From a virus (lineage: Duplodnaviria; Heunggongvirae; Uroviricota; Caudoviricetes): a stretch of DNA of 64,000 bases. Every line of letters starts with the position of its first letter. Within the stretch, counting starts at the first letter, position 1. Made by a program: the position numbers and the translations under genes. The notes under the pieces were generated by a model that ran no database searches, was not told where the DNA came from, and worked only from the letters and a program-made list of their open reading frames with translations. Of the stretch, positions 40,200-60,305 are shown one piece after another. The stretch lies in the IMG/VR virus record IMGVR_UViG_3300024348_000010. One strand, given 5' to 3'.

Positions 40200-41384
40200 A
40201 TGAAATTAACTGAACATTTTTCTTTGGCAGAGATGATTGTTTCTCCTACTGCAAAAAGACTCGGACTTAGTAACACTCCAACTCCAGAACACATTGAGAA
40301 CATGCGTTACTGCTGCGAAAAGATTCTCGAACCAGTTCGTAATCACTTTGGCAAACCAGTTCAAATCAACTCGTCTTATCGTGCACCGTTGGTGAACAAG
40401 GCAGTCGGCGGTTCGAAGACATCACAGCACGTCAATGGCCAAGCGATCGACTTCGAAATTCCTGGTATTGACAACAAAGTTGTTGCGGATTGGATCGGCG
40501 ACAATCTCGAATTTGACCAAGTAATTCTTGAGTTCTATACAAAGGGCGATAAGAATTCTGGCTGGGTTCACGCTTCGATTAAGAAGGGTGGTGGCAATCG
40601 TAAGATGCGTATGATCGCTACGAAGTCGAAGGCAGGCGGAACCGTCTATACAACGGTCGCTGACTTTGATCCATCGACGACAAAGGCTGCTGGGGCTCCT
40701 TCAATTGCCACAGCGCCAAAGCAAGCGCCTCCTCAGTCGTCTCCGGCTGCTCCTTCAAAGGTATCAGGTCTTGGTCCATTAGCTGCTCTCCAAACAAAAT
40801 GCGGCATTACTGCCGACGGTAAATGGGGACCTGGCACATATAAGGCAGCAAGAGATTACTTCAAGCTGACAAATAATCAAGCAGCGCACTTCTTCGGTCA
40901 GTGTGCGCACGAGTCAGGCGGGTTTAAGGTGTTCTCCGAGAACCTGAACTACTCAGATAAGGGACTCAACGGCATCTTCAAGAAGTATTTTCCTACGATC
41001 GCTTCGACCGCAGGTTATGCTCGTAAGCCAGAAAAGATTGCTAACAAAGTGTATGCTAATCGGATGGGGAACGGATCAGAAGCCTCTGGAGATGGTTGGA
41101 AGTGGCGTGGTCGAGGCCCGATCCAACTGACCGGGAAAGACAACTATACAGCTTTTGCCGCTGACGTAAAACGTCCTGACGTCTTGACGAATCCTGATCT
41201 TGTGGTTGGTGAGTTGGCTTTTGAGTCTGCATTATGGTTCTTCCGTAAGAATGGATTGCTTGCAATTGCAGACAAAGGTGTAACCGATGCGGTGATCACT
41301 CAAATCTCGAAGAGAGTGAATGGCGGTACACACGGTCTTGACGATCGTTTAAAGAAAACAAAACAATACGCCAATTGGGGATAA
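40200..41384 (+). CDS. bifunctional endolysin: peptidase M15 domain + GH19-like lysozyme domain
   Basis: N-terminal Peptidase_M15_3 (SSYR...SQHVNGQAIDF), Ala/Pro linker, C-terminal FGQCAHESGGF...NYTAF GH19 motifs. The only plus-strand gene in the window. Confidence 0.7.
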   Translation: MKLTEHFSLAEMIVSPTAKRLGLSNTPTPEHIENMRYCCEKILEPVRNHFGKPVQINSSYRAPLVNKAVGGSKTSQHVNGQAIDFEIPGIDNKVVADWIGDNLEFDQVILEFYTKGDKNSGWVHASIKKGGGNRKMRMIATKSKAGGTVYTTVADFDPSTTKAAGAPSIATAPKQAPPQSSPAAPSKVSGLGPLAALQTKCGITADGKWGPGTYKAARDYFKLTNNQAAHFFGQCAHESGGFKVFSENLNYSDKGLNGIFKKYFPTIASTAGYARKPEKIANKVYANRMGNGSEASGDGWKWRGRGPIQLTGKDNYTAFAADVKRPDVLTNPDLVVGELAFESALWFFRKNGLLAIADKGVTDAVITQISKRVNGGTHGLDDRLKKTKQYANWG

Positions 41385-43908: not shown

Positions 43909-44523
43909 TCAGCGTGAACGATAAAAAGGTCTTGGATAATCTCTTTCAGCAAGATGTGATGCATCAGGATGGACGTAGTGGAGGAATAGCTGGATTAATG
44001 AATCCATTTCGAGAGGATCTCTCCAGTGCCACTTGCCTCCATAGTTTGATCCGCCATTGAAAATGATGGCATCACCTTCATCAAGGTCGACCGGTATCGG
44101 ATTGCTCTTATCATCTGAGTCGCTAAAAAATAGCGCAGACGTTCCTTCTCCCCTCTTACACATCGTGATAGTGATGGAGTACTGGCACGCTTCGCGATCT
44201 CGATGATTTTTGAGTTCAGCTCCACGAAAATATTCTCGTGAATAGGCATACGAAGGAACCATATTATCGGTTGCCCATATTTTTTCTACGATATGTTTGC
44301 AATATAAGAGTATGCTATTATCGAGAACGTTGCCATCAACAGACTGAATGTCTCCGCCTAAGTATGGACCCGTTTCTCTCCTTCTCATATCATCGAGATG
44401 AGAGATATCGATAAAGGATTTATATAGCTCTATGATCTCAGGAGACAGAACGTTTTTAATTTTAACAAAACCATTTTTCTCAAATTCAGCTCGATAAGAA
44501 GCCATCATCGTATCATCAATCAT
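43909..44523 (-). CDS. putative 2OG-Fe(II) oxygenase (PhyH-like)
   Basis: HRDRE ... HWRD candidate metal ligands. Weak. Confidence 0.4.
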   Translation of the reverse strand: MIDDTMMASYRAEFEKNGFVKIKNVLSPEIIELYKSFIDISHLDDMRRRETGPYLGGDIQSVDGNVLDNSILLYCKHIVEKIWATDNMVPSYAYSREYFRGAELKNHRDREACQYSITITMCKRGEGTSALFFSDSDDKSNPIPVDLDEGDAIIFNGGSNYGGKWHWRDPLEMDSLIQLFLHYVHPDASHLAERDYPRPFYRSR

Positions 44524-44529: not shown

Positions 44530-46593
44530 TCACTTACTTGTAGCTCTATAAACTCCGTCCCATTCCCAGGGTTCTTCAAACTTTAGATTCTGAATGCGTT
44601 TCTCCATCATATCGTAGTATGCATTCAGCTCTTCGTCCCAGCAACGTTTCAGATCTTTTATCAGATTGATAGCTGCATCCCATTTACCTTGACGATAGAA
44701 GTCCAAGAACTTTTTATGCAGCAATTCTCCAGCAGGATCTGCCACATCAAAAATGGTATAGATGCGAGCAGGTTCTGTCTTACCTTTCACGGCGATCAGG
44801 TCGAGTTCAACTACTTGGTATACATCCCCAACCAATTCGGCAGTTTGTGGTCCGACGACGAGTTTGACGCCATAAGGTTTGGATTGACCTTCCAGACGAG
44901 CAGCCAGATTAACGCCATCACCCAGACAAGTATAATCAAAACGCTGGCTACTGCCCATATTACCAACCACCACAGTGGCAGTGTTAATACCAAGACCCAT
45001 GCCAAAAGCGGGTATACCTTCTCTTTCAACTTCTTCATTAAATATCTCCAGGTCTTTTAGCATTTGAAATGCTGTTCGAACTGCATCTCGTGCATGTTGT
45101 TTGTTATCGAGCGGCGCATTCCAGAATGCCATCTGTGCATCACCAATATACTTATCTAATGTCCCATTGTTTTCAAGGATCGCTCTTGTCATGACCGTCA
45201 TATAACGATTCATGATTGAAGTCAAACCTTGGACATCTTCACCATAGTGTTCAGAGATTGTAGTAAATCCTCGAACGTCTGTGAACATGATTGAAAGCTC
45301 GCGAGATTCTCCGCCTAACTTCAAGAGATCTGGTTGTCTTTGCAATTTTGCTACCAGATCTGGACTCAGATATGTGCCGAACTGTTTCTTGATTTGTTGC
45401 TTCTGAAGGAATTCAGATATAAATTTCACTGTATAGATATGCATGTAAATAATTGCAATTGCGATGACGTTAAACGTGACGTCTAACAAGATTCCTTTGC
45501 TTGCGAATAAATACATAGGCAGATAAAGATATCCGCCTAAAATTAAACCTATCCAGACGATAGAGTATTTTAATCGAGAGATGATGATCAATGCCAGAGC
45601 CAAAACAAGAAGAGCAGCAAGATCTACAAGCTGTGTCCAATTCGGAATCGAAACCGAATCACCATTTATCAGAGTCTCAAGAATACTCGCCTGGAGCTGA
45701 TGGGGATACTGCGCACCTGAAGGAGTCGCTACAGGGTTACTTACACCAGCTGCAGTTACTCCGAGAATCACGATTTTACCACTCAGGACAGGCAAAGGAT
45801 CCTTGCCAATTTCGTATGACTCAAATCGATAGTTTGGATTAATAAACACGCGACCATATTCATCGGTCTTAATAGTTTCAAAAGAAGGAATTCGTAATGC
45901 TTCCACACCAGTCTCATTTATCTTTGCCTGATACGAAGGATCTCCGGCAGCAACTCTTAACATTTCTAGAGCAAATGCAGGGTAGTATTCACCCGCTGAG
46001 GTTGCGAGAAGCGGAACTCGTCGCACAACACCGTCAGGTTCAGGAAGAGTTGATGTCACTCCAACACCAGCAGCATGCTGCTGAAGCAATGCTAGATTCG
46101 ATAGGACGCATGGATATGACGGAAGAAAATCGGTTGACTGGCCATCCCCAACAACAGCCACACCTGTCCGACGAACATCGCGACTGGATGGTCGACCACA
46201 ATCCGCCGACACAGTCTGACTAAGAACAACTGGATACTTGCTTAGAGTATCAACAAGAACTCGATCAGTGCCCATCCGATCAGGCTCAGGCATAAGTACA
46301 GTGCTGCCAACAAGAGCAGCCCCTCGGCCATAAATGTTCCCAATAATTTCAGCGTGGACTTCACGCGGGAACGGCCACTGGCCATATTTTTCAATTGCTT
46401 TCTCCCCTAAATTAACGACTACAATCTGCTCAGATTGTTTTGCTTTATCGAGCATGATGTAGTCATAAAATTTAAGACGAGTCGCTTCAACTAGATATGG
46501 ATCTTGTAACTTAAAAGTAAATAGTACTGCAAATGTAAAGAGCGCCAACCACGGGCTCAGTAGAATCTTTTTCATCATGTCAGCGCTTTCCAT
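44530..46593 (-). CDS. CHASE2 sensor-domain membrane adenylate/guanylate cyclase (class III)
   Basis: 687 aa. N-terminal periplasmic CHASE2-like domain, three TM segments, C-terminal CYCc domain (FTDVRGFT, KYIGDAQMAFWNAP, GDGVNLAARLE). Confidence 0.75.
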   Translation of the reverse strand: MESADMMKKILLSPWLALFTFAVLFTFKLQDPYLVEATRLKFYDYIMLDKAKQSEQIVVVNLGEKAIEKYGQWPFPREVHAEIIGNIYGRGAALVGSTVLMPEPDRMGTDRVLVDTLSKYPVVLSQTVSADCGRPSSRDVRRTGVAVVGDGQSTDFLPSYPCVLSNLALLQQHAAGVGVTSTLPEPDGVVRRVPLLATSAGEYYPAFALEMLRVAAGDPSYQAKINETGVEALRIPSFETIKTDEYGRVFINPNYRFESYEIGKDPLPVLSGKIVILGVTAAGVSNPVATPSGAQYPHQLQASILETLINGDSVSIPNWTQLVDLAALLVLALALIIISRLKYSIVWIGLILGGYLYLPMYLFASKGILLDVTFNVIAIAIIYMHIYTVKFISEFLQKQQIKKQFGTYLSPDLVAKLQRQPDLLKLGGESRELSIMFTDVRGFTTISEHYGEDVQGLTSIMNRYMTVMTRAILENNGTLDKYIGDAQMAFWNAPLDNKQHARDAVRTAFQMLKDLEIFNEEVEREGIPAFGMGLGINTATVVVGNMGSSQRFDYTCLGDGVNLAARLEGQSKPYGVKLVVGPQTAELVGDVYQVVELDLIAVKGKTEPARIYTIFDVADPAGELLHKKFLDFYRQGKWDAAINLIKDLKRCWDEELNAYYDMMEKRIQNLKFEEPWEWDGVYRATSK

Positions 46594-47192
46594 TCTTCGG
46601 GTGTTATAACTTCTCTATTTACTAAAAGACTCTCATACAATTCAATCTCTTTTATCATATCTTCCCGTTTAAAGTATCTATTCTTTGGAAAAGGATCTAT
46701 ATTTCTATTAGTAGTATTGGTTTCAGCGCCTCGGGGTGATATCTTTGGAATATATTGAGATAGATCTTCAAATTTTATAATTCTAAAATCTCTATTTTTT
46801 ATAATATGCATATATGGACGACAGTGTTGATTAAAAATAAATCTTTCAATTTCCCACTCTCGTTGACGATCATCCCAGTTAATCAAGTCTTCAATAAGAG
46901 AAAAGTCGTCGCATTCTCCGGTGGTTTTATACTTTACTATTCGTTCATTAAATTGCTTTTCATGAAAATTAATAGCAGAATGCATACGTTCTACTGGATG
47001 CCTTAATACTACTACTTTCGGAGATTCTCCTTCTATCCAATGCGCAAATGTTTTTTGCATTGGTAGTTCTATTCCAAAATAATATGACATAGCCGTATGA
47101 CCGCACTTAGTCATAGATAAAACATTTAGATTGCCATTATCATGTATAAAAATAAACATAATTAATTCTTTACGTAGCTGTATCCAGTACAT
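46575..47192 (-). CDS. sulfotransferase-family protein
   Basis: 5'-PSB-like MTKCGHTAM and 3'-PB-like VVLRHPVERMHSAINF motifs. Confidence 0.5.
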   Translation of the reverse strand: MYWIQLRKELIMFIFIHDNGNLNVLSMTKCGHTAMSYYFGIELPMQKTFAHWIEGESPKVVVLRHPVERMHSAINFHEKQFNERIVKYKTTGECDDFSLIEDLINWDDRQREWEIERFIFNQHCRPYMHIIKNRDFRIIKFEDLSQYIPKISPRGAETNTTNRNIDPFPKNRYFKREDMIKEIELYESLLVNREVITPEEWKALT

Positions 47193-48622
47193 GGCCCAGT
47201 GGCGCAGGTGATTGACATTAAGACTGAGTCAGTAACGCTCGCGGCAGTTTGCGATACAGTGACTCCAATTCCAGGATTATTTATTACCAATTTAAACAGC
47301 TTCTGTGCAGAACCAGATTGAGTGATATTTGCATTCAACCCACCATACGGAGCACTGACATCGAGGAAATGATTACCAGTTCCTTGTTGAAGAGTCGTAA
47401 TCACATTCGAGTTACCTAAAATGTTGAAGAACGCAGACTTTCCACCAGTATCTTTCTGTTGGGCAGTCAGTTGATTTCCTGTTCCATTCATTATTAGCTC
47501 TGCATACTTGCCATTATATTGCTGAGTCAGAGATACGGTGTTATTGTTTCCTGTCACAGAGACTTCGGCAAGATTATTACCAAGAATTGCGACCGCAGTA
47601 CCTTGATTGATAGTAATGGAGTTGTTGCTACCATTGATCAACATCGATTGAGAACCATTTACACCTCTGATAGCGTTAAACCTCGAGAACTGCTCGATGT
47701 TGACGGTATTGTTATCACCGATATTTTGAATGTAAATCGAGTTGCTCGTAATGGCATTCGTTTGACCGAGCTTGATAGTTTGATTGGTAGTAATCGATGT
47801 AGTTGGATATACTGGTTCTGCAGGAGGTGGAGGTGGTGCAGTCGGTGCCGAAGATCCTTGGTTCGGTGCAACAGGAGCAAACGTAGCACCATTCAGTGAC
47901 GTTGTTCCTTGTAACTGATCGATGAATAAGATAGGCGAAAGAGCTGTGTCACCGAGGTTGAAAGAAGAGAATCCAAGCATATAGTTGCCATCTGCTGGAA
48001 CCGTGAACACGGCAACTTGCCAGCCAGTAGCACTATAAGAGTTAGTCGAATAGTTGCCAGTTCCAGGATTTGTAAAGCCTAACAGCGCATAGTTTTGTGT
48101 TTGACCGTTGAGAGTCGGTGTTCCCGGTCCACCCGTCAAGGTGATGAGAGAACCATCGTTATACGGAACATAGTCTGTCGACAGATACTGCCAACCAAAC
48201 GAATATGTAATTCCTGCCTGCAAGAATACTGTTCGACTGACTGAAGAAGCGTTCGTAGGATACATCGATCCGTTCGAATAGATCGTGTTACGAATAGATG
48301 TAATGTTAGAAGCGCTGAGCCCAAGAGTAGTCATCGCAGCATTAAAATTGGGCGAGTTTCCTCCTGCTTGAATCGATAACATGTACGATCCATACGGAGT
48401 AATCGTCCAGCACTTACCACCGCCTGGGCAATAGTTCTGTACTCCAGTTGTCACTTGTACACCGTTACCAGTGTCGCTCCATGAAGTACGAAGTGCAGTA
48501 GATCCGTTCGACACCGTCCAACCCGCATAATTTCCATCTTCGAAACCATAGTTCGAAGGCGTCTGCGCATTTAACTGTACGCTGAACGTTAACAGTAGTA
48601 GTGTTAAGATCCATCTCATCAT
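47162..48622 (-). CDS. secreted protein with C-terminal curlin-like (Q-x-G-x-N) repeats
   Basis: Signal peptide MMRWILTLLLLTFSVQLNA. N-terminal beta-rich domain. C-terminal repeats (SITINQGTAVAILGNN, TVSLTQQYNGKYAEL, LTAQQKDTGGKSAFFNILGNSNVITTLQQGTGN). Confidence 0.5.
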   Translation of the reverse strand: MMRWILTLLLLTFSVQLNAQTPSNYGFEDGNYAGWTVSNGSTALRTSWSDTGNGVQVTTGVQNYCPGGGKCWTITPYGSYMLSIQAGGNSPNFNAAMTTLGLSASNITSIRNTIYSNGSMYPTNASSVSRTVFLQAGITYSFGWQYLSTDYVPYNDGSLITLTGGPGTPTLNGQTQNYALLGFTNPGTGNYSTNSYSATGWQVAVFTVPADGNYMLGFSSFNLGDTALSPILFIDQLQGTTSLNGATFAPVAPNQGSSAPTAPPPPPAEPVYPTTSITTNQTIKLGQTNAITSNSIYIQNIGDNNTVNIEQFSRFNAIRGVNGSQSMLINGSNNSITINQGTAVAILGNNLAEVSVTGNNNTVSLTQQYNGKYAELIMNGTGNQLTAQQKDTGGKSAFFNILGNSNVITTLQQGTGNHFLDVSAPYGGLNANITQSGSAQKLFKLVINNPGIGVTVSQTAASVTDSVLMSITCATGPCTGYSYVKN

Positions 48623-49755
48623 CTTACACCCGATTCTTGTATCACGGTGATATTTCCTTGCGGTCTACCTGTGCCAGTCGTAGTCCATTTATCATCCATA
48701 AAATTGTATGCGTCGACGACACCATTATGAGATGAAATCATTTGGATTTCAGTATCTTTTGGTAACCATACCACGACAACTTGATTCTTATCTTCAGAGA
48801 TTCTCGAGTATACCCAACCTACCTGCACCAACTTCTTAAAAGTGGGCGATACGTTCGTATAAACGGTTTCTGTAGGCCTCTTTCCAGAATTATACTCTGC
48901 ATAAATTTCTTGAAGTTCATTCTGTGTAGGCAAACGAAGTGTAGCCACCGCTACTTCTTCTACACCATCTCCGCCAGTATTTGGATCTTGGTTATCGTCA
49001 GATGCCGCTTTTGCAGGATTGACAAACTTCTTCAAAGCTTCACGAGCTGCTGTGATCAGTGATTGTCCATCATCGGTTTCGAGGGGAGAGATCTGAATAT
49101 TGTTGTCCATACCCTTCATTGAAGGATTGATGACGACAGGAGGAGCAGGAGGCGCATAAGAATTCTCGACCATCGTTGCTTGGAATGGCTGAGTCAGAGT
49201 GACGATACCTGCAGCAGTGATCACGTCGATAGCTCCTGATGGGCATTCGAAGTTGATCTTTGTGATATCTTTGTCATTGTAACATTCAGGAACAAGAACG
49301 ACTGTCGATCTGCCAGCTTCGTCGACAGACATGACAAAGTCTGTACCTCTTACGGCGATCGTTGCAGTCGGTGTACGTATACCGACACCACGAGCATTGC
49401 CATGAGCAATCGCTCCAGAAGTATATCTTGCAGTTCCTAAAGCTAGCTTCAAACCGAGCTTGCCTTTGCTCTTATTGTTTCCATCATATACGAAATCGTC
49501 GATGACCAGCCGTGAATTCTGTGTGATGTTCACAGTGGTGGCATCGACGAATCGAATCTTAAATTTACCTTGAGAATTGGTCGACACAGTATCGTTCTTC
49601 TCGATACTCGAGCCTTTAGCAGCAGGTGCAACTTTTGCACCACGCTTTACAGAACCTCCACCCTGAAATTCTGATATCGATCCCACGCCTGCAAAAGCTG
49701 GAACCGATATCAGAAAGAGTGCATTAATGGCCAGTTTTAATATTAAACGTACCAT
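48619..49755 (-). CDS. FecR-domain protein (periplasmic partner of CHASE2 cyclases)
   Basis: Signal peptide. FecR-like block (IEKNDTVSTNSQGKFKIRFVDATTVNITQNSRLVID ... IRTPTATIAVRGTDFVMSV). Confidence 0.6.
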   Translation of the reverse strand: MVRLILKLAINALFLISVPAFAGVGSISEFQGGGSVKRGAKVAPAAKGSSIEKNDTVSTNSQGKFKIRFVDATTVNITQNSRLVIDDFVYDGNNKSKGKLGLKLALGTARYTSGAIAHGNARGVGIRTPTATIAVRGTDFVMSVDEAGRSTVVLVPECYNDKDITKINFECPSGAIDVITAAGIVTLTQPFQATMVENSYAPPAPPVVINPSMKGMDNNIQISPLETDDGQSLITAAREALKKFVNPAKAASDDNQDPNTGGDGVEEVAVATLRLPTQNELQEIYAEYNSGKRPTETVYTNVSPTFKKLVQVGWVYSRISEDKNQVVVVWLPKDTEIQMISSHNGVVDAYNFMDDKWTTTGTGRPQGNITVIQESGVR

Positions 49756-50542
49756 TTGAACCCGCCGAGTTAATATTGATTACGGTTTCAGAAGCTCCGT
49801 ACTGTTGGGTTGTAATGGTGTTCAGTGTACCTGTGAGGTTCACATACAGAGAATGGCCGAATGTTCCGCCGAGACCTGTTTGTGTCACGTCGAAGTCATT
49901 GTAATCACCAGTCACGAGAATGGTTTGAGTTGCGTTAGGCGAGAGTGCATCGATGTTGAATGCATTGTTGTCACCAGTGATATCCATCGAGTTACGAATG
50001 TTTTCGCCTGAACCATGGAATACGAGCGAGTTTGAATCGCCTGTAAATCTGGCATTCAGATCAAACTTGTTACAGATAGCATCAGATTGAAGCGTGCCGC
50101 AACGAATGTCTGCAGTGTTGAGATTACCGATCTGACGAACAGTTACTGCTGCGATTCCTGTTGCTCCTGTAGCGGAGACCACGCCCATGTAGAGTTCGTT
50201 TCCGTTACCGGTTTGAACAGCGATGACACTTTGATTATCACCTCGTAAATAGATAGGATCAGCATTGTCGCCAATGATATTAGCAGTACCAGTTTGAACA
50301 ATGTTAACATCTACATTACCACCTTCTTGGTCGATATATACTTTGTTTGTTGTAGCTACTGCAGCTGCAGTCACTTCATTTGGTGACGTAGTTACAATTG
50401 CTGGTGGAGTTGGGGCTGTTGGTAGCACTGTTTGTGCAATCGCAGATGTTCCATAAAGAAGAGCAGCTCCAACGAATAAAGATTTAATTACCTTCATTTG
50501 TTGTTTCCTTTTGCTTAAATCTCCATAGACCTTTACGTTCAC
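49724..50542 (-). CDS. curlin-repeat secreted protein (CsgA/CsgB-like amyloid subunit candidate)
   Basis: Signal peptide (probable start MKVIKSLFVGAALLYGTSAIAQ near 50494). Repeats IDQEGGNVDVNIVQTGTAN, VIAVQTGNGNELY, VTQTGLGG, TTQQYGASETVININSAGSNG. Confidence 0.55.
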   Translation of the reverse strand: MNVKVYGDLSKRKQQMKVIKSLFVGAALLYGTSAIAQTVLPTAPTPPAIVTTSPNEVTAAAVATTNKVYIDQEGGNVDVNIVQTGTANIIGDNADPIYLRGDNQSVIAVQTGNGNELYMGVVSATGATGIAAVTVRQIGNLNTADIRCGTLQSDAICNKFDLNARFTGDSNSLVFHGSGENIRNSMDITGDNNAFNIDALSPNATQTILVTGDYNDFDVTQTGLGGTFGHSLYVNLTGTLNTITTQQYGASETVININSAGSNGTFNIKTGH

Positions 50543-51308
50543 CGTCCTTGATCAATTCCACAACGGCCGTTTCTATGGCTGAACGGATCGCATAACTACC
50601 TGCTTCATTCGATGTTTGTTGTCCATCGAATTCAAAAGCTTTTGTTGCCATGTCAAAAAACTTAAATGCTGTCACTCCCTCGGACGTAGAGAGCAGATTC
50701 TTCTCAACAGTGACAGAGGTCAGGACTTCTCCTGTCTGTACTGATACGAGTCGCATACTAATAGTAACTTGATCTTCTGCATACTGTTGATAAGGGCCGA
50801 TTCCAAGGAATCGTGCACCGTTACCACCAGTTTTGGTATTTGAACTATAGTCAATAATACCACCTTCAAGAATGATACCCGCAACCATCAAAGGAGGAAG
50901 TGGCTCAGCACCTTCTCCGAGTTGTTGCTCTCTCATCTGTCTTACGAGCTGACGTTCTTTAATTAAAGAATCGATGCCTACACGCTCGACTGGTTTAAAC
51001 CATTTGCCATCTCCGACATCTGCCAATGTTTTGATAACATAAGCATCTGCACCTTGAGTCACGGCTGTCGAAAAGCTGGCTTGAGTAGCAGAAGGTTTGC
51101 GTTGTCCTGTTCTATCAGTGAACGAGTAGATGGCAATCGGAATTACCTGACCGTCAAGTTCTGGTAGAGTTCTGAACAACTTAGGATTTGCAAATCTTTC
51201 TACCTCGGCATCTTCTCTCATCAGATACGACTGATTGAGATGAGGATGCACTCCGCCTGCGCAGGCAGTTGTGACAAGAAGCAGTGGAAGTAAAATTAGC
51301 TTTTTCAT
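50484..51308 (-). CDS. csgG: curli production assembly/transport lipoprotein CsgG-like outer-membrane channel
   Basis: Lipoprotein signal (LLLVTTAC). Block IAIYSFTDRTGQRKPSATQASFSTAVTQGADAYVIKTLADVGDGKWFKPVERVGIDSLIKERQLVR is collinear with E. coli CsgG (VSVYNIQDETGQFKP..SNFSTAVPQSATAMLVTALKDSRWFIPLERQGLQNLLNERKIIR). Confidence 0.8.
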   Translation of the reverse strand: MKKLILLPLLLVTTACAGGVHPHLNQSYLMREDAEVERFANPKLFRTLPELDGQVIPIAIYSFTDRTGQRKPSATQASFSTAVTQGADAYVIKTLADVGDGKWFKPVERVGIDSLIKERQLVRQMREQQLGEGAEPLPPLMVAGIILEGGIIDYSSNTKTGGNGARFLGIGPYQQYAEDQVTISMRLVSVQTGEVLTSVTVEKNLLSTSEGVTAFKFFDMATKAFEFDGQQTSNEAGSYAIRSAIETAVVELIKDGERKGLWRFKQKETTNEGN

Positions 51309-51317
51309 GACTTCTCC

Positions 51318-51758
51318 TTAAAACGCAAACGTTGCGATAGGAACAGTCACGACTGTCGTGTTACCAAATTTGTCGACAACTGTCAACGTCACAGATGTGC
51401 CAGTTTTTACATAGCTAATTGTGTTACCATCGAGATTGAACATGCCTTGCTGAGCAGAACCTTCGGCAAAGAGATTGTTTGAAAGCTGTGTGGCTAGCTG
51501 AGCATATACCTGAGAGGTAAACAGAGCCATAAACTTTGCAAGCGGAGTGTTCGAAGCTTCAGCTTTTGCAAGAGCGGCTTTTGCTGCTTCTGCATCTTTG
51601 ATTGCTTGTTCACGAGAACGTTCTTGCGCATCGATTGCCTGCACATGTTGTGACCATCCATATCCATTGAAGGACGGACTTTTAAACTGCTGTACGAGTG
51701 GATCAGCTTTTGCTGGGCTGCTTAGTATCAGAGCTAGCAGGAGCAGACTCTTTTTCAT
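51318..51758 (-). CDS. csgF: CsgF-like curli assembly protein
   Basis: Signal peptide from the internal Met. Mature N-terminus LVQQFKSPSFNGYG matches the CsgF N-terminal motif (TFQFRNPNFGGNP). C-terminal beta-strand tail. Confidence 0.6.
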   Translation of the reverse strand: MKKSLLLLALILSSPAKADPLVQQFKSPSFNGYGWSQHVQAIDAQERSREQAIKDAEAAKAALAKAEASNTPLAKFMALFTSQVYAQLATQLSNNLFAEGSAQQGMFNLDGNTISYVKTGTSVTLTVVDKFGNTTVVTVPIATFAF

Positions 51759-51832
51759 CTTTCTTTTCCCTCTTAAAAGGTATATCTTTGTTCGAAGAAA
51801 GACTAAATTCAAGTGTGAAGATCTTGATGATT

Positions 51833-52096
51833 TCAATCTTTAGATTTATGTTCACTGTGATCTTCCTTTATCTGCAATACAACGTTCACCTTCTGATTCA
51901 ATCGAATAAGATCGTTATCCAACATACGGACACGATCAATCAACGCAATTAAAATTACATTTGTTTCGCCAATCAATGGCATTAGTTTATCTGTTACGAA
52001 CTTATAGATGAACCACACAAAATAACCCATGCCGACCGCTGCGACAATTGGAAATCCATATTGTTTTACCAGTTCTGCAATTATTTGTGGATCCAT
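51833..52096 (-). CDS. small single-TM membrane protein (paralog A)
   Basis: 87 aa. GFPIVAAVGMGYFVWFIYKF...DRVRMLDNDLIRL. Paralogous to the next ORF. Confidence 0.45.
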   Translation of the reverse strand: MDPQIIAELVKQYGFPIVAAVGMGYFVWFIYKFVTDKLMPLIGETNVILIALIDRVRMLDNDLIRLNQKVNVVLQIKEDHSEHKSKD

Positions 52097-52383
52097 TAAT
52101 CTTTCCGAGCATCGTTCTTCCCGTCTGCTCGTGCGATTCTGTCGAGATCTGGCTTCAGACCAAGAGCGGAACTTACAACTGCATCAACGCGAATAATATC
52201 ATGGTTCATTGTCTTGACTCGATTGTCAAGCCCCATAATAATACCCTGCATTCCCTTGATTGCCTTCACGACACTCTCAAGAATGTAGTTGATAACGAAG
52301 TAAACGAAAACCCCACCGAGCAATGCTGCTGCGATGGGGAATCCGACATCACCAATAAGTTTGAATATAGTATCGTAACCCAT
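52096..52383 (-). CDS. small single-TM membrane protein (paralog B)
   Basis: GFPIAAALLGGVFVYFVINY...DNRVKTMNHDIIRV. Start placed at the internal Met to avoid overlap. Confidence 0.45.
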   Translation of the reverse strand: MGYDTIFKLIGDVGFPIAAALLGGVFVYFVINYILESVVKAIKGMQGIIMGLDNRVKTMNHDIIRVDAVVSSALGLKPDLDRIARADGKNDARKD

Positions 52384-52396
52384 AGGACTATTTATA

Positions 52397-53410
52397 CTAT
52401 TTCGTGACTGATGCGCTACACTTTGTACAAATGTTGTTGTAGGCTCTGTCGATGGTCTCGACGTGCTTCTCGCTGTGCCACATTTCACTCAGTTCTTGTT
52501 CAAGAATGTTACCAAAGATATAATCAAAGTTATAATCATTGCAGCAAAGGATTGCATCTCCGTTTGAATTGACGCTTAGCCACTCGTAGTTTCGATCGCC
52601 CCAGTTTTGACAACCAACGACCGTACGATTCTTCATACGATCTTTCATGTATTCTTCTTCGGTAATATACTGACCGATAAGGCCAGTACGATCGATCAGA
52701 TCAGACTTCTCAACGTCAAATTTAGGGAACAGCTTAGTAGCAATATCTACTTGTCTCTGATGCTCGCCTGTCTGCATGTCAAGATCGATGCCAAGTTCTT
52801 CAAACTTTGGGCCTTTCTTCAAAGATCCTGTCTTAAACGAGAGTTCGTTGACACCATTGACGATCAGCTTCACTCTTCCTTGTAACTTACGTGTCACAGG
52901 ATGATCATGCAAGTTTTGAAGGTTTGTCATGACATCATCGAATCGTTTCGCAGGAAAGCCTGATCGTTTGGACCAAACTTCTGCATTCTCATAAGCAGGA
53001 ATGTTGAGTGCGATTTCCTGAATGACAGAGGGAGTATACTTATTGATGATATCGAGTTTTTCTGGAGTGAGATTGACACCGTTACTCAGAATGAAAGTCT
53101 TGAGTCCGTAGTGTTTTGCCAACTCGAGTAGCTTCTCGAAGTCTTTGTAAAGCAGCACCTCGCTGTAGTGTGTGGTGAGAAAGAGCTCGAAGTCAGGACT
53201 GACTACGCCATTTGGTGTCTCTCGTTCGACAATAAGTTTTCGAAAGATCTTCTCGACGTCCTCGATAGGCATCTGCTTCATGCCAGATTCTGGCTGAGGA
53301 ATGTACTTGACAGGACAATACCAGCATTTGGCATTACAGAACCCAAAAAGGTCGATAGCCAAACGCTGGATCTGATAGGCTTTTAACCTAGAACGAATAA
53401 ATGTAGACAA
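52397..53410 (-). CDS. radical SAM enzyme with C-terminal Cys-rich (SPASM/twitch-like) extension
   Basis: CNAKCWYC (CxxxCxxC) near the N-terminus. C-terminal CQNW...CCNDYNF...CTKCSAS. Confidence 0.65.
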   Translation of the reverse strand: MSTFIRSRLKAYQIQRLAIDLFGFCNAKCWYCPVKYIPQPESGMKQMPIEDVEKIFRKLIVERETPNGVVSPDFELFLTTHYSEVLLYKDFEKLLELAKHYGLKTFILSNGVNLTPEKLDIINKYTPSVIQEIALNIPAYENAEVWSKRSGFPAKRFDDVMTNLQNLHDHPVTRKLQGRVKLIVNGVNELSFKTGSLKKGPKFEELGIDLDMQTGEHQRQVDIATKLFPKFDVEKSDLIDRTGLIGQYITEEEYMKDRMKNRTVVGCQNWGDRNYEWLSVNSNGDAILCCNDYNFDYIFGNILEQELSEMWHSEKHVETIDRAYNNICTKCSASVTK

Positions 53411-56488: not shown

Positions 56489-56563
56489 TGGCTCCCTAAG
56501 AAGGATTCGAACCTCCGACCAATTGATTAACAGTCAACTGCGCTACCGCTGCGCCATTAGGGA
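56489..56563 (-). tRNA. tRNA-Asn (GTT)
   Basis: Cloverleaf parsed by hand. Anticodon loop CTGTTAA, T-loop GGTTCGAATCC, CCA encoded. Confidence 0.8.
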
Positions 56564-56570
56564 ATAAACT

Positions 56571-56762
56571 TTATTTTAACTCTTTTAATTCTTGATTGAT
56601 ATACAACTTAGCCGCATCCATGATGGTGCGAATCGCTGCTTTCTCGGCAGGAGTTGCACCTATTCCTTGAACGTAAAGATTGGCATTAATCGATTGTTCA
56701 CCTGGACCATTATCCTCATCGAGAACATGTTCGCTGATATGCAGTTCAACTTTCTTAATCAT
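56571..56762 (-). CDS. hypothetical small protein
   Basis: 63 aa. Confidence 0.35.
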   Translation of the reverse strand: MIKKVELHISEHVLDEDNGPGEQSINANLYVQGIGATPAEKAAIRTIMDAAKLYINQELKELK

Positions 56763-56777
56763 ATTATATATTCCTTA

Positions 56778-57041
56778 TTATATGCTGTTGCTATCTTTAT
56801 TCATTGACATCTGATCAAGCACTCGCTGTTCTTCTTTCAAGCGAGCAGCTTTCGCAGTAGGCGTTTCGATCTTCTTTGCGTTATGCATATCGCGTTCTTC
56901 GGGTGACATCTTGCTTGTCATATCAAGAATGATATTAAACAACCGATTAAACTCAGAAGAGTTAGGAAAGTAACGTTGAACTGATGCGAAACGATTTTCA
57001 GCCATAGTCAAATAATCAGAATTAGTCATTATAATCTCCAT
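56778..57041 (-). CDS. hypothetical protein
   Basis: 87 aa. Confidence 0.4.
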   Translation of the reverse strand: MEIIMTNSDYLTMAENRFASVQRYFPNSSEFNRLFNIILDMTSKMSPEERDMHNAKKIETPTAKAARLKEEQRVLDQMSMNKDSNSI

Positions 57042-57110
57042 TTCTTATTATTCAATCTACAACATAATGCATAATTTGTACACCAAAAAACGCACTCGGC
57101 TAAAAATAAA

Positions 57111-57187
57111 TGGTGCCCTCGGTAGGATTCGAGCCTACAACCGTTTGATTCGTAATCAAGTGCTCTATCCAGTTGAGCTACGAGGGC
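57111..57187 (-). tRNA. tRNA-Arg (ACG)
   Basis: Hand-folded. Anticodon loop TTACGAA, CCA encoded. Confidence 0.75.
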
Positions 57188-57188
57188 A

Positions 57189-57263
57189 TGGTACCCGATG
57201 ACGGGATTGAACCGCCGACCTTATCCGTGTAAAGGATCTGCTCTACCGCTGAGCTAATCGGGC
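57189..57263 (-). tRNA. tRNA-Val (TAC)
   Basis: Anticodon loop TTTACAC, G1-U72, CCA encoded. Confidence 0.75.
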
Positions 57264-57271
57264 ATTAAACT

Positions 57272-57353
57272 TGGTACTCCAAGAGGGACTCGAACCCCCA
57301 CGCTTGCGCACTAGTTCCTAAGACTAGCGTGTCTACCATTCCACCATTGGAGC
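57272..57353 (-). tRNA. tRNA-Leu (TAG), class II
   Basis: Anticodon loop CTTAGGA, long variable arm GCGCAAGCGT. Confidence 0.75.
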
Positions 57354-57354
57354 A

Positions 57355-57430
57355 TGGTGCCTTCGGACGGATTCGAACCGCCGACACGTGGTACTTCAAA
57401 CCACTGCTCTACCAACTGAGCTACAAAGGC
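57355..57430 (-). tRNA. tRNA-Phe (GAA)
   Basis: Anticodon loop TTGAAGT, D-arm GCTCAGTTGGTAGAGC. Confidence 0.8.
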
Positions 57431-57551
57431 GAGTGGCTTCCTAAGTGTGCCTTGATACATTACGTCCGGACGCTGTATCTTCCCATGTGAAGAAATGTAT
57501 TGCAAATTATTTCCGCACAACTTCTCGGGGTTCAGCAGAGGAAGCCTACCT

Positions 57552-57627
57552 TGGTGGAGGATAGCGGGATCGAACCGCTCACCTTCTGAATGCAAATCAG
57601 ACGCTCTACCGAATGAGCTAATCCCCC
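57552..57627 (-). tRNA. tRNA-Ala (TGC)
   Basis: Anticodon loop TTTGCAT, G3-U70 pair present. Confidence 0.8.
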
Positions 57628-57633
57628 AATTTC

Positions 57634-57708
57634 TGGTGACACAGGATGGATTTGAACCATCGACCAACGGCGTATGAGACCGTCGCTCTACCGCTGAGCT
57701 ACCATGTC
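57634..57708 (-). tRNA. tRNA-Met (CAT)
   Basis: Anticodon loop CTCATAC. Could be elongator, initiator or Ile-lysidine type. Confidence 0.7.
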
Positions 57709-57714
57709 ATATTC

Positions 57715-57788
57715 TGGAGCGGGCTACGGGAATCGAACCCGTGTCGTCAGCTTGGAAGGCTAGCGTAATACCATTATACCAAGCCCGC
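57715..57788 (-). tRNA. tRNA-Gly (TCC)
   Basis: Anticodon loop CTTCCAA. Similar to bacterial tRNA-Gly(UCC). Confidence 0.8.
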
Positions 57789-57795
57789 TTTATTC

Positions 57796-57871
57796 TGGTG
57801 CCCCCACGACGACTCGAACGCCGGGCCTACGCATTACAAGTGCGTCGCTCTACCAACTGAGCTATAAGGGC
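57796..57871 (-). tRNA. tRNA-Thr (TGT)
   Basis: Anticodon loop CTTGTAA. Confidence 0.8.
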
Positions 57872-57877
57872 AATAAG

Positions 57878-57955
57878 TGGTCGGGAATGTAGGATTCGAA
57901 CCTACGACCTCCTGCTCCCAAAGCAGGCGCGCTGACCAGACTGTGCTAATCCCCG
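57878..57955 (-). tRNA. tRNA-Pro (TGG)
   Basis: Anticodon loop TTTGGGA. C1-G72 as typical for Pro. Confidence 0.8.
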
Positions 57956-58003
57956 TTATAGTATTCTATATATACATTCTAAATTAAAGTACACAAAAAA
58001 ATT

Positions 58004-58079
58004 TGGATGCCCCTCCAGGGCTCGAACCTGGACTTTTCGGAATCAAAATCCGACGTGTTGCCAATTACACCAAGGGGCA
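58004..58079 (-). tRNA. tRNA-Gln (TTG)
   Basis: Anticodon loop TTTTGAT. U1-A72 as typical for Gln. Confidence 0.8.
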
Positions 58080-58291
58080 GTGGTGGGTGACTGTGGTTAC
58101 GCTCCACTCCCTTTACGGATCGGTTTTACAGACCGACTGCCGAAACTATCGACTTTAATCACCCTTATTCTATACACCCTATCGGTTAACCCCATTGATC
58201 TTTGCGGTAAGGAATCCGATATTCGCCAGCGTTCCCCGTCTGTTAGTCTGGCATAGGTCTCTCCGGTAGGTTCTAGAATACCGGATAATTC

Positions 58292-58367
58292 TGGTAGACC
58301 ATGTAGGATTCGAACCTACGACCTAAGGATTAAGAGTCCCGCGCTCTACCAACTGAGCTAATGGTCC
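58292..58367 (-). tRNA. tRNA-Lys (CTT)
   Basis: Anticodon loop CTCTTAA. Confidence 0.7.
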
Positions 58368-58524
58368 ATAAAATTAAAACTGATACATTACCCAAAAGTA
58401 TGCTATTGCACCACTAGACCAAGTCACTTTACTACCTCTGTACTTTTTGTTCGGTACGAGAGGGGACTCTGGTAATGGAAGTAAAATCCAATCTTCGTAT
58501 TTCATAATATACTCTTTCAAAAAC

Positions 58525-58600
58525 TGGTGGACGATCTGGGGCTCGAACCCAGGACACACAGGTTAAAAGCCCGTTGCTCTACCTACTGAGCTAATCGTCC
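58525..58600 (-). tRNA. tRNA-Lys (TTT)
   Basis: Anticodon loop CTTTTAA. Confidence 0.8.
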
Positions 58601-58608
58601 GTTAAAAT

Positions 58609-58875
58609 TTAACCGATGTAGATCCGATACTCATCGGAATCTACAGGTGCACCGAGCGTCCGACGCTCGACGTAGTAACGCTGGATGAACCGATCGCCAT
58701 CACGAGTGTACACACCGTGGGCAGTCCGTGCTTCATCTTCCGACGCATACACGCCAAGGAGCACCGAACCTTCGTAATCCCATTCACCTAATAATGCAAA
58801 TATTTCCATATCACATCTCCATAATTTCAAAACGAGCATCAAATGCATTATCCAATGCTGCCACAAATTCATCAT
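58609..58875 (-). CDS. hypothetical small protein (GC-rich)
   Basis: 88-aa ORF inside the tRNA array. Start uncertain. Confidence 0.3.
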   Translation of the reverse strand: MMNLWQHWIMHLMLVLKLWRCDMEIFALLGEWDYEGSVLLGVYASEDEARTAHGVYTRDGDRFIQRYYVERRTLGAPVDSDEYRIYIG

Positions 58876-59037
58876 AATCAGCGCCTGCTTCTTCGCAGGC
58901 TTTACGCATCAACCGAACCATGTCGGCAATCATTTCTTCGCGGTTGAGAATCATAACAATTTCCTTTAGCTTATTATTCATATTACCAAAGATATGATAA
59001 AATGTACACTAAAAAATGCACGGTATGAAAAATAATT

Positions 59038-59115
59038 TGGTAGGGGTAGTGGGACTCGAACCCACACTGTGCGAATTTTAAGTCCGCTGACTCTAACCAA
59101 TTGGCCTATACCCCC
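59038..59115 (-). tRNA. tRNA with anticodon TAA (Leu-UUA reader), atypical class-I-like architecture
   Basis: Anticodon stem GCGGA/TTCGC, loop CTTAAAA, A73, but only a 5-nt variable loop and a long D-loop. Confidence 0.55.
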
Positions 59116-59116
59116 A

Positions 59117-59192
59117 TGGGGTGATCGACGGGTATCGAGCCCGCAACTCCGGTATCACAAACCGGCATGTATCCATTAACACCTCGACCACC
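59117..59192 (-). tRNA. tRNA-His (GTG)
   Basis: Anticodon loop TTGTGAT. Extra G-1 pairing with C73 (His hallmark). T-loop CTCGATA is unusual. Confidence 0.8.
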
Positions 59193-59462
59193 ATAAACTG
59201 TTTGATTAGACCCCGCCGGGATTGCCCAGCACCTCACGACATCCGCTACGCAGACACCGTCTAATCACGCCCTAGCGTTACCCTCAACTTGGTGTGGAAC
59301 AGTCCCCGCTGCTCTGTATTACTGTTTGCTCGATGGGGTTACATGAGGTCGGCCTCATCTCTTTTCTATGCAAACAAACCACGTAAACTGGCGGAGTTGC
59401 CAATCGCAGAAAGACACCCTCTCTTGTTATCGATCGACCATTAACGTGTCCACGACTCCATA

Positions 59463-59551
59463 TGGCGGAACGTCAGGGAATCGAACCCTGTCAACCCATT
59501 ACAGGTTGTACGCATTAGCAGTGCGTTGCATTACCGTCCTGCCCACGTTCC
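59463..59551 (-). tRNA. tRNA-Ser (GCT), class II
   Basis: Anticodon loop CTGCTAA, long variable arm, G73. Confidence 0.8.
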
Positions 59552-59703
59552 GTATATAATCTATTCCATCGATTTTTAGCGCCAAAGAGCTTTGCTTTGG
59601 CTAATTCGATATCTCTTTCTGCCATCACAATTTTGGCAGCCAATTTAGATTGCTCGCCGTTCATATGTTTTGGTATCACAAAATTCATAATATACTCCAA
59701 ACT

Positions 59704-59778
59704 TGGTAGCCCGAACGGGTTTCGATCCCGCTTCTCTGCCTTGAAAGGGCAGTGTCCTAGCCACTAGACGACCGGGCC
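59704..59778 (-). tRNA. tRNA-Glu (TTC)
   Basis: Anticodon loop CTTTCAA. D-arm GTCTAGTGGCTAGGAC like bacterial tRNA-Glu. Confidence 0.75.
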
Positions 59779-59779
59779 A

Positions 59780-59854
59780 TGGAGCGGAAGAGCGGATTCG
59801 AACCGCCGACCATCTCGTTGGCAACGAGAAGCTCTACCACTGAGCTACTTCCGC
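59780..59854 (-). tRNA. tRNA-Gly (GCC)
   Basis: Anticodon loop TTGCCAA. Confidence 0.8.
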
Positions 59855-59862
59855 ATTAAAAT

Positions 59863-59948
59863 TGGAGGAGGGTGATGGCATCGAACCATTTACCTTTCGG
59901 TAACTACAGTTTTCAAGACTGTGTGAGGAGCCAACCTCAGCACCCTCC
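59863..59948 (-). tRNA. tRNA-Ser (TGA), class II
   Basis: Anticodon loop CTTGAAA, long variable arm AGTTACCGAAAGGTAA, perfect acceptor GGAGGGT/ACCCTCC. Confidence 0.75.
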
Positions 59949-59950
59949 AT

Positions 59951-60026
59951 TGGTGCGTCTAGTAGGCTCCGACCCTACGACCTCACGGTTATCAGCCGTG
60001 TGCTCTACCAACTGAGCTATAGACGC
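59951..60026 (-). tRNA. tRNA-Ile (GAT)
   Basis: Anticodon loop CTGATAA. T-loop GTCGGAG is atypical. Confidence 0.7.
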
Positions 60027-60050
60027 AAACAACAATGAGAAAGAACAAAC

Positions 60051-60125
60051 TGGCGAAGGTGCCAGGATTCGAACCCGGATCGCAAGGTTTTGGAGACCTG
60101 CATGTTACCGTTACAACACACCGAC
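60051..60125 (-). tRNA. tRNA-Trp (CCA) candidate, imperfect acceptor stem
   Basis: Anticodon loop CTCCAAA and good T-arm, but two mismatches in the acceptor stem (GTCGGTG/CACCTTC). May be degenerate. Confidence 0.45.
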
Positions 60126-60228
60126 ACAAATTGTTGTTCGCTTAGGTTTTTAGCAACGGATGCGAACCCCGCCTAGCTTGTTACTCGTACCATTCGGTTA
60201 TCAACAAGACCAACGTCTCCGAATGTAA

Positions 60229-60305
60229 TGGCGATCTAGAAGGGACTTGAACCCTCGACCTCTCGCGTGACAGGCGAGTGCTCTGACCGTCTGAGCTACT
60301 AGACC
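60229..60305 (-). tRNA. tRNA-Asp (GTC)
   Basis: Anticodon loop CTGTCAC, G73. First tRNA downstream of the TGTACATG element at 60349. Confidence 0.8.

Follow-up and report, generated by a model that had tools for sequence, protein, structure and literature searches.

A divergent example of the marine viral curli secretion module in a T4-like phage genome

The window analysed here, the whole stretch of 64,000 nucleotides from IMG/VR virus record IMGVR_UViG_3300024348_000010, carries a complete set of genes for curli-type (type VIII) secretion on the minus strand of a T4-like phage genome (Table 1). Along that strand the order is CsgF, CsgG, curlin, FecR, curlin and cyclase, the genes being tightly packed with start and stop codons overlapping or at most 10 nt apart. 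All five envelope proteins (CsgF, CsgG, the two curlins and the FecR protein) have signal sequences. The T4-like nature of the genome, assigned in an initial annotation, was upheld by the presence of a gp43-type DNA polymerase, UvsX, a gp41-type helicase, ribonucleotide reductase and an endolysin; the best matches of the DNA polymerase were cyanomyophages (49–50%).

The initial annotation had placed four consecutive genes between 47162 and 51836, with CsgG first and CsgF second. The four proteins named and all peptides quoted for them were recovered at their positions, but the interval holds five genes, as a FecR gene lies between the two curlins, and CsgF is transcribed before CsgG. Nor is the module limited to this interval: it continues into a CHASE2 adenylate cyclase gene, and two small membrane proteins also belong to it.

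Table 1. Features of the curli-type module and their positions in the window.
Feature	Position	Strand	Description
Late-promoter-type motif TATAAATA	52389..52396	-	motif match, T4 type
Small membrane protein 1	52096..52383	-	95 aa, single-pass; phrog_18771
Small membrane protein 2	51833..52096	-	87 aa, single-pass; phrog_18771
CsgF homologue	51318..51758	-	146 aa; Pfam PF10614
CsgG homologue	50484..51308	-	274 aa, predicted outer-membrane lipoprotein channel subunit; Pfam PF03783
Curlin-type subunit 1	49724..50497	-	257 aa; signal peptide and Q-x-G-x-x-N repeats
Secreted FecR-domain protein	48619..49755	-	378 aa; Pfam FecR
Curlin-type subunit 2	47162..48622	-	486 aa; signal peptide, head domain, solenoid
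Variable ORF	46575..47192	-	205 aa (194 aa from the second ATG); no family match
CHASE2-class III adenylate cyclase fusion	44530..46593	-	682–687 aa; Pfam CHASE2 and Guanylate_cyc

The proposed identity of the four gene products, a CsgG/CsgF channel with two curlin-type secreted proteins, was borne out. CsgG matched its Pfam family with 174.5 bits (cut-off 20.8, E = 2.3e-51) and scored 163 bits, far under the cut-off of 505, with the NCBIfam equivalog. Solved E. coli CsgG (PDB 3x2r/4uv3) aligned to residues 43–268 of the phage protein (226 residues, E = 3e-44), and the N-terminal MKKLILLPLLLVTTAC includes a Cys in the region where the homologue from Pelagibacter phage HTVC008M has its lipobox Cys. 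Judged by sequence, the protein is a CsgG-family lipoprotein predicted to reside in the outer membrane. CsgF matched its family with 63.8 bits (cut-off 25.8, E = 2.3e-17), and its true start is not 51836 but the ATG at 51758, which is preceded by the ribosome-binding site GAGGG. It has a Sec signal peptide with cleavage between …AKA and DP. The mature N-terminus QQFKSPSFNG aligns with FQFRNPNFGG of E. coli CsgF, which we take to be the part inserting into the CsgG barrel in structures of the CsgG-CsgF complex; in these structures the N-terminal segment of CsgF narrows the E. coli channel. A phmmer search of PDB sequences gave no direct match of phage CsgF to CsgF chains.

No match to the CsgC, CsgD or CsgE families of Pfam and NCBIfam was found among the module proteins, and with E. 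coli CsgE and CsgC only chance-level BLASTP matches were obtained, in a tiny database of six E. coli Csg proteins searched with no composition correction, from which the alignments and not the E-values were used. For CsgF, CsgG, both curlins, FecR and the cyclase, dN/dS ranged from 0.05 to 0.13 (CsgG 0.05, CsgF 0.07, FecR 0.06), indicating strong purifying selection, with rough figures because dS was near saturation for many sequence pairs.

Curlin 1, with its true start at the ATG at 50497, consists of a signal peptide, a conserved Pro-rich N-terminal segment and a beta-solenoid of Q-x-G-x-x-N repeats. In curlin 2 the signal peptide is followed by a beta-rich head of about 235 aa, a Pro-rich linker, a curlin-like solenoid and a C-terminal CxxxxC. 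Repeats are spaced at 11 or 22–23 residues, with the Q, G and N positions invariant. The profile searches proposed in the initial annotation, significant for CsgG and CsgF, fell short for the curlins, which scored 20.1 and 16.2 bits against a Curlin_rpt (PF07012) cut-off of 20.7. Both are homologous to proteins of HTVC008M and Methylophilales phage Melnitz that clear this cut-off, and precomputed PF07012 matches exist on several of their orthologues. Structure prediction gave a confident beta-solenoid for curlin 1, and a poor model overall for curlin 2 (pLDDT 57); a Foldseek search against the PDB returned no significant match. The head of curlin 2 had no match in Pfam, PHROGs or NCBIfam, and its relatives were found in surface adhesins. 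It differs between lineages: an adhesin-type head with no family name here, a PA14 domain in HTVC008M and none in Melnitz, whose curlin 2 is 338 aa of repeats only. Taken together, both are Sec-exported proteins whose beta-solenoid repeats appear to be of the curlin type, and both may form fibres. A virion or tail-fibre role for these proteins was ruled out, both having Sec signal peptides and lying outside the structural gene block.

A reading in which CsgG is an adhesin exporter, and the exported repeat proteins serve as surface adhesins or coat proteins, monomeric or short, and form no amyloid fibres, was judged unlikely. In structure, curlin 1 matches best a solved curli fibre subunit that is itself long (355 aa), and it is the stacked Q, G and N positions that do not vary. 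CsgF, which supports nucleation at the cell surface in E. coli according to PMC7029224, is moreover retained.

The FecR protein (Pfam FecR, 2.4e-12; phrog_37870) has a signal peptide cleaved between …PAFA and GV; phmmer against PDB sequences gave nothing usable for it. The cyclase matched Pfam CHASE2 (8.7e-38) and Guanylate_cyc (2.5e-17), and its catalytic domain aligned with the solved adenylate cyclases 3r5g (CyaB), 1wc0 and 6fht. A motif-by-motif alignment to 3r5g and 6fht showed FTDVRGFT, DKYIGD and DYTCLGDGVNLAARLE to be conserved. The protein has a CHASE2 domain on the periplasmic side, membrane helices and, in the cyclase domain, the metal-binding Asp pair, the Lys and the Asn/Arg. By these features it is a membrane-bound CHASE2 adenylate cyclase whose catalytic motifs are intact and for which cAMP synthesis is predicted. 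FecR-domain proteins occur beside CHASE2 sensors in Burkholderia (PMC5192318), and in Sinorhizobium a periplasmic FecR-domain protein is the target of CHASE2-cyclase cAMP signalling (PMC5498481). In the Burkholderia operon, which regulates biofilm, the gene for a secreted FecR-domain protein likewise adjoins that for a membrane sensor whose CHASE2 domain is periplasmic; the output of this sensor is a histidine kinase, whereas that of the phage protein is a class III adenylate cyclase, and the phage genes, unlike the Burkholderia pair, are separated by a curlin gene and sometimes another ORF. The FecR protein probably acts with the periplasmic CHASE2 domain as a sensory pair setting cAMP output.

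The two small membrane proteins, with one membrane helix each, are paralogous and share the motif ALxDRV..M..D.IRL; no Pfam or NCBIfam domain, and no kinase domain, was found in either. Among 50,697 phage records the 95-aa protein occurs only in six, which carry the curli module, and the 87-aa protein is 47–49% identical to its positional counterparts in HTVC008M and Melnitz. Of 71 viral loci, 67 have the 95-aa protein next to the module, and none of the genuine bacterial curli loci has it. In PMC9599517, the viral module is preceded by one or two genes labelled histidine kinase; in the window this position holds the two short paralogous genes. When the region before csgF in a distant viral clade was searched for a full-length histidine kinase, only the short paralogous pair was found. 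The 205-aa ORF between curlin 2 and the cyclase is shared with some relatives only (loci L061, L072, L091, L003 and L005) and had no match in Pfam, PHROGs, NCBIfam or the PDB (phmmer). Its motifs TKCGHT and RHPVERMHS presumably resemble the PAPS-binding motifs of sulfotransferases.

The motif TATAAATA precedes the gene for small membrane protein 1 by 6 nt and csgF by about 630 nt. All seven of its copies in the window are on the coding (minus) strand, against 2.6 expected. It recurs at −621 to −645 from csgF in Melnitz (about −621), where it likewise precedes two small genes, and in every close relative extending far enough, and at −14 in HTVC008M and −25 in locus L118. From its sequence and position it is likely a T4-type late promoter of the module.

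The module was found in 66 IMG/VR loci, with the same gene order in at least 60 IMG/VR contigs, and hundreds of close homologues exist in public metagenomes on contigs of up to about 170 kb. Relatives of the 8.3-kb block were found by protein-level search only, megablast against the 50,697 phage records having returned nothing. Contiguity with phage DNA, on which the initial annotation depended, was confirmed: an identical curlin 2 protein is encoded, each time between the same flanking phage genes, by at least 24 contigs assembled independently from several JGI and ENA samples. The GC content of the block (0.41–0.46) is in line with that of the window (about 43%), with no discontinuity, and the isolated phages HTVC008M and Melnitz carry the same module. 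One close relative, L007, is filed in a ‘Bacteroidetes’ metagenome-assembled genome, as might be expected if host DNA had been misassembled onto phage DNA, but it shows the full viral module order, seen in none of the other bacterial loci. The chance that the block is misassembled host DNA is negligible, and this reading is refuted by the many independent contigs and IMG/VR loci.

The initial annotation knew of no described phage curli system. This does not hold: the order CsgF-CsgG-curlin-FecR-curlin-cyclase is annotated in HTVC008M and Melnitz, and publications from 2013 to 2022 had reported this module in marine phages of SAR11 and OM43, with analyses in PMC7029224, PMC9004378 and, in full, PMC9599517. 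The window is a divergent example of this published module in a different T4-like lineage, and the system itself was already known. Its CsgG is 45–49% identical to those of HTVC008M and Melnitz (49% to Melnitz), CsgF 35–36%, FecR 42–43% and the cyclase 40–41% (41% to Melnitz). For HTVC008M the four fall at 35–45%, and the curlins at about 27–34%. The module of HTVC008M and of uncultivated pelagimyophages and pelagipodophages (PMC7029224; PMC9599517) has the same gene order including the two small membrane proteins. Like the window, HTVC008M is a T4-like marine-type myovirus with no CsgC, CsgD or CsgE and has TATAAATA upstream of the module; unlike HTVC008M, the window has the extra ORF before the cyclase, a GC content of about 43% and an array of 25 tRNAs. 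Melnitz (PMC9004378) shares both order and neighbours with the window.

Compared with the csgBAC-csgDEFG system of E. coli, whose CsgG is 37% identical to the phage protein over 269 residues, the CsgF family with its N-terminal motif and the repeats with their spacing are common to both. The phage module is a single operon and not two divergent ones, lacks CsgD, CsgE and CsgC, has subunits two to three times the E. coli length, one with an added head domain, and adds FecR, the CHASE2 cyclase and the small membrane proteins. The closest cellular CsgG proteins, about 45–51% identical and with CsgF directly upstream, are in alphaproteobacterial loci (Sphingomonadales, Azospirillum, Caulobacterales); these systems also lack CsgC, CsgD and CsgE according to PMC9599517. 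In tblastn searches within 8 kb of CsgG, FecR, the cyclase and the small membrane-protein pair were found in none of 50 genuine bacterial loci.

On this basis it is rather probable that the module of the window is a divergent form of the viral type VIII secretion module known from SAR11 and OM43 phages, exporting curlins that polymerise at the surface. The block would be transcribed late from the T4-type late promoter; CsgG would oligomerise into a channel through the outer membrane of the host, capped by CsgF. Unfolded curlin 1 would be exported and polymerise at the cell surface, and curlin 2 would join the polymer through its repeats and display its adhesin-type head. The infected cell or its remains could thus become sticky or coated. 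Possible gains are aggregation with neighbouring hosts, particle attachment and a block on competing phages; aggregation (‘sibling capture’) and superinfection exclusion were already proposed in PMC7029224, PMC9004378 and PMC9599517.

A different role, in which CsgG with or without CsgF serves only as a channel for lysis timing (pinholin- or secretin-like) or for uptake of nutrients or cofactors and the repeat proteins are incidental, was put forward in PMC9004378 (Buchholz et al.) and PMC7029224. In the former, csgA/B are called absent in Melnitz, a lysis pore is favoured, and no clumping of Melnitz-infected cells was seen. The lack of a CsgE gate speaks for this role as well, and the likely late promoter would fit a function near lysis. 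It nevertheless appears improbable. No viral module examined lacks curlin 1, and the lineage of the window retains curlin 2 throughout; both are under purifying selection, and the channel-narrowing N-terminal segment of CsgF is kept. The lipoprotein-type signal of CsgG would direct it to the outer and not the inner membrane, so that a pinholin-like depolarising role is hard to see. The variation of the curlin 2 head between lineages argues for a predicted binding function over a bare pore. The reports of absent csgA/B are superseded by PMC9599517 and the GenBank annotations.

An extension of the preferred reading, surface-polymerising curlins exported by the viral module, is put forward tentatively: the module may be a virus-specific, signal-controlled adhesive-fibre system switched on late, with an interchangeable head, envelope sensing by FecR and CHASE2, and the small membrane proteins as its most conserved, virus-only parts.

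Three details seem to go beyond the accounts of the module published so far, within the portions of these that were available: the swappable N-terminal adhesin-type head on curlin 2, the conserved T4 late-promoter motif TATAAATA ahead of the module, and the two conserved membrane proteins of about 90 aa tied to viral and not to bacterial curli loci. They leave the published status of the system unchanged. Phage curli modules are widespread in ocean viromes and their genes are expressed in ocean metatranscriptomes, according to PMC9599517. To these viral modules the window adds a divergent, abundant lineage, and it offers testable handles in the likely late promoter, the adhesin-headed second subunit and the small membrane protein pair that tracks the viral module.

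Genes run densely on the minus strand of the window from 44.5 to 52.4 kb, with start and stop codons overlapping or at most 10 nt apart across most of the curli block. The initial annotation had placed a four-gene curli system at 47162-51836; curli genes are indeed present there, but they number five, a FecR gene having been missed, and the module extends past both ends of that interval. The start of CsgF is the ATG at 51758, with a GAGGG ribosome-binding site ahead of it.

Features of the curli module and its surroundings (window coordinates unless a locus is named)
Feature	Position	Strand	Remarks
Radical SAM/SPASM protein	52397-53410	-	module neighbour
TATAAATA motif	52389-52396	-	6 nt ahead of the first small membrane-protein gene
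Other TATAAATA copies	23521, 25465, 34239, 41990, 60316, 62027	coding strand	
Small membrane protein, 95 aa	52096-52383	-	phrog_18771
Small membrane protein, 87 aa	51833-52096	-	phrog_18771
Small-protein pair in relative L001	5808-6370		
Small-protein pair in relative L002	5822-6460		
CsgF, 146 aa	51318-51758	-	Pfam PF10614
CsgG, 274 aa	50484-51308	-	Pfam PF03783
Curlin 1 (repeat protein), 257 aa	49724-50497	-	
FecR-domain protein, 378 aa	48619-49755	-	PF04773
Curlin 2 (repeat protein), 486 aa	47162-48622	-	
Curlin 2 head domain	47858-48565	-	N-terminal
ORF without assigned function, 205 aa	46575-47192	-	
CHASE2 adenylate cyclase, 682-687 aa	44530-46593	-	CHASE2 and class III cyclase domains
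PhyH-like 2OG-Fe oxygenase	43909-44523	-	module neighbour; PHROGs label 'ferrochelatase'
Endolysin	40200-41384	+	module neighbour; M15 peptidase and GH19 domains combined; no other long ORF on the plus strand of the window is plausible
Array of 25 tRNAs	56489-62019	-	all on the minus strand
tRNA-Ile(TAT) call	61225-61316		unusually long, 92 nt

The identity of CsgG and CsgF, proposed initially from the sequence, was borne out by profile searches, with 174.5 bits against PF03783 (cut-off 20.8) and 63.8 bits against PF10614 (cut-off 25.8). Phage CsgG can be aligned along 226 residues with the solved CsgG of E. coli (3e-44), and it has a Cys in about the place where the homologue in Pelagibacter phage HTVC008M has its lipobox Cys. 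The mature N-terminus of phage CsgF, QQFKSPSFNG, pairs with E. coli FQFRNPNFGG, which we take to be the part inside the CsgG barrel in CsgG-CsgF complex structures. Conservation of this segment argues that phage CsgG and CsgF still work together as a pair. The FecR domain was found at 2.4e-12. The cyclase gene combines CHASE2 (8.7e-38) with a class III cyclase domain (2.5e-17), the latter alignable to solved adenylate cyclases and retaining the FTDVRGFT, DKYIGD and DYTCLGDGVNLAARLE motifs. CsgF, CsgG, both curlins and the FecR protein carry Sec-type signal sequences at their N-termini. The 205-aa ORF gave no database match; its TKCGHT and RHPVERMHS are, in our reading, similar to the PAPS-binding motifs of sulfotransferases. 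Only some relatives have this ORF between curlin 2 and the cyclase; others have it at another place in the genome.

For the two repeat proteins, homology and repeat spacing speak for the initial call of curlin repeats; their scores on the Pfam Curlin_rpt profile are marginal (20.1 and 16.2 bits, cut-off 20.7). Both are homologous to the proteins in the same position in HTVC008M and the Methylophilales phage Melnitz (E 3e-12 and 3e-20); three of the four counterparts in these phages pass the Curlin_rpt cut-off, and precomputed PF07012 hits exist on several orthologues. The G-x-x-N motifs return at the spacing seen in E. coli CsgA, 11 or 22-23 residues, and the columns invariant among 28 orthologues of curlin 1 are mostly the Q, G and N positions of the repeats. 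AlphaFold2 predicted a confident all-beta solenoid for curlin 1 from residue 50 (pLDDT about 85-98, mean 79.7) behind a disordered Pro-rich segment; a Foldseek search returned no significant match. We take both proteins for curlin-type subunits and are surer of curlin 1 than of curlin 2. That CsgG instead exports them as adhesins which do not form amyloid fibres is judged unlikely. A similar Pro-rich stretch stands directly before the first repeat in both curlins (LPTAPTPPAIVTTSPNE and APTAPPPPPAEPVYPTTSITTNQ) and may be the counterpart of the N-terminal targeting segment of CsgA. Cys pairs are conserved in the phage curlins (C133/C142 in curlin 1, a C-terminal CxxxxC in curlin 2), whereas E. 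coli CsgA lacks them.

Curlin 2 is modular: a signal peptide comes first, and a head of about 235 aa, a Pro-rich linker and then the repeats follow. The head belongs to no Pfam family; in NCBIfam a PEP-CTERM-associated family is matched weakly, at E 7e-4 and far under its cut-off. It has 285 cluster-level relatives, large surface proteins among them, and in 28 sampled relatives it is fused to cadherin-like, Big_9, autotransporter, PATR/ESPR, SLH, F5/8-type-C or curlin domains, which are surface-adhesin architectures. At the place of this head, HTVC008M has a PA14 domain and Melnitz no domain. A fibre subunit with a swappable binding head favours an adhesive function, and it speaks against CsgG acting as a bare pore, a reading we consider unlikely. 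Buchholz et al. (PMC9004378), who modelled CsgG and CsgF of Melnitz, preferred a lysis-pore role.

The window encodes a gp43-type DNA polymerase (49-50% identical to cyanomyophage enzymes), UvsX, a gp41-type helicase, ribonucleotide reductase and an endolysin. A chimeric assembly with host DNA, the caveat raised initially, is excluded: the GC content of the curli block equals that of the window, all four closely examined contigs with an identical curlin 2 have the same phage neighbours on both sides, and a scan of IMG/VR gave 66 loci with a CsgG relative. At least 24 contigs, which come from several JGI and ENA samples, are on record with an identical curlin 2. For all six genes tested, dN/dS against relatives was 0.05-0.13, values that are rough since dS is close to saturation. 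Viral-form modules were also met in two bacterial metagenome-assembled genomes, 'Bacteroidetes bacterium WB6_2A_118' (RGCF01000015.1) and, with the small-protein pair, 'uncultured Cellvibrio sp.' (CAXAVL010000384.1); both are probably mis-binned phage DNA.

A tblastn search of 50,697 phage records with CsgG matched HTVC008M, four Melnitz records and a 1.5-kb unannotated 'Salmonella phage' fragment. HTVC008M and Melnitz have these genes annotated as curli components and arranged in the order of the window. Zaragoza-Solas et al. (PMC7029224) describe a pelagimyophage 'curli operon' and propose 'sibling capture', and Wittmers et al. (PMC9599517) report the complete set in myoviruses and podoviruses (CsgF, CsgG, CsgA/B, FecR, a second CsgA/B, adenylate cyclase and a short 'histidine kinase'), trace its origin to Alphaproteobacteria and find it at 65 of 65 GOV2.0 stations, with transcripts. 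With these annotations and the three papers, the initial claim of novelty fails. The lineage of the window (about 43% GC) is divergent: its CsgG is 45-49% identical to those of HTVC008M and Melnitz, and no nucleotide-level match to the curli block was found among the 50,697 records. It is abundant in public metagenomes, which hold 1,107 curlin 2 homologues at E <= 0.001, on contigs of up to about 170 kb. Among the viral loci retrieved, a close clade (84-100% CsgG identity) has the full gene order; a distant one (IMG/VR loci L095-L122, 44-54%) is without curlin 2, so that the FecR gene abuts the cyclase gene. Bacterial curli loci, the closest being those of Sphingomonadales (CsgG about 50%), have CsgF and CsgG, but FecR, cyclase and small membrane proteins were not found within 8 kb, which fits the published view of these genes as virus-specific additions.

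The two small membrane proteins are paralogues of about 90 aa with a single membrane helix each. The pair occurs in six of the 50,697 phage records, all six carriers of the curli module. Of 71 viral loci, 67 have it beside the module, in most cases ahead of it and with the same orientation; seven distant-clade loci have it past the cyclase on the opposite strand. It was not found in genuine bacterial curli loci. Across the loci compared, the pair tracks the viral module exactly, and it is better conserved towards the distant clade (54-71% identity) than CsgG (44-54%). Pfam and NCBIfam showed no kinase domain in either protein. The pair may be what Wittmers et al. (PMC9599517), in whose account a short 'histidine kinase' precedes the module, labelled 'HK'; in that case the label looks doubtful.

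The TATAAATA motif ahead of the pair, the T4 late-promoter consensus, is a putative promoter. All seven copies in the window are on the coding strand (2.6 expected). Its position before the module is kept in Melnitz and in those close relatives that extend far enough; in HTVC008M it stands directly ahead of csgF. This conserved placement suggests that the module is expressed late.

The block is most likely a working type VIII secretion module that provides infected cells with a fibre or coat on their surface. CsgG would form the channel, CsgF would cap it and aid nucleation, and curlin 1 would be the main subunit and curlin 2 the adhesin-bearing one. The CHASE2 cyclase probably has the FecR protein as its partner in a sensory pair, by analogy with a Burkholderia biofilm operon encoding FecR-domain proteins beside CHASE2 sensors (PMC5192318) and with Sinorhizobium, where CHASE2 cyclases have a periplasmic protein with a FecR domain in their regulon (PMC5498481). 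We infer that fibres form, that the phage benefits, that the motif acts as a promoter and that the two sensory proteins are paired. The feature is real and correctly identified, a divergent example of an already published kind of system. Keyword searches of the available text of PMC7029224, PMC9004378 and PMC9599517 found no mention of a modular curlin 2, of small proteins tracking the module or of the late-promoter motif. The remaining interest lies in the function of viral curli modules, together with the modularity of curlin 2, the small-protein pair and the late-promoter motif.
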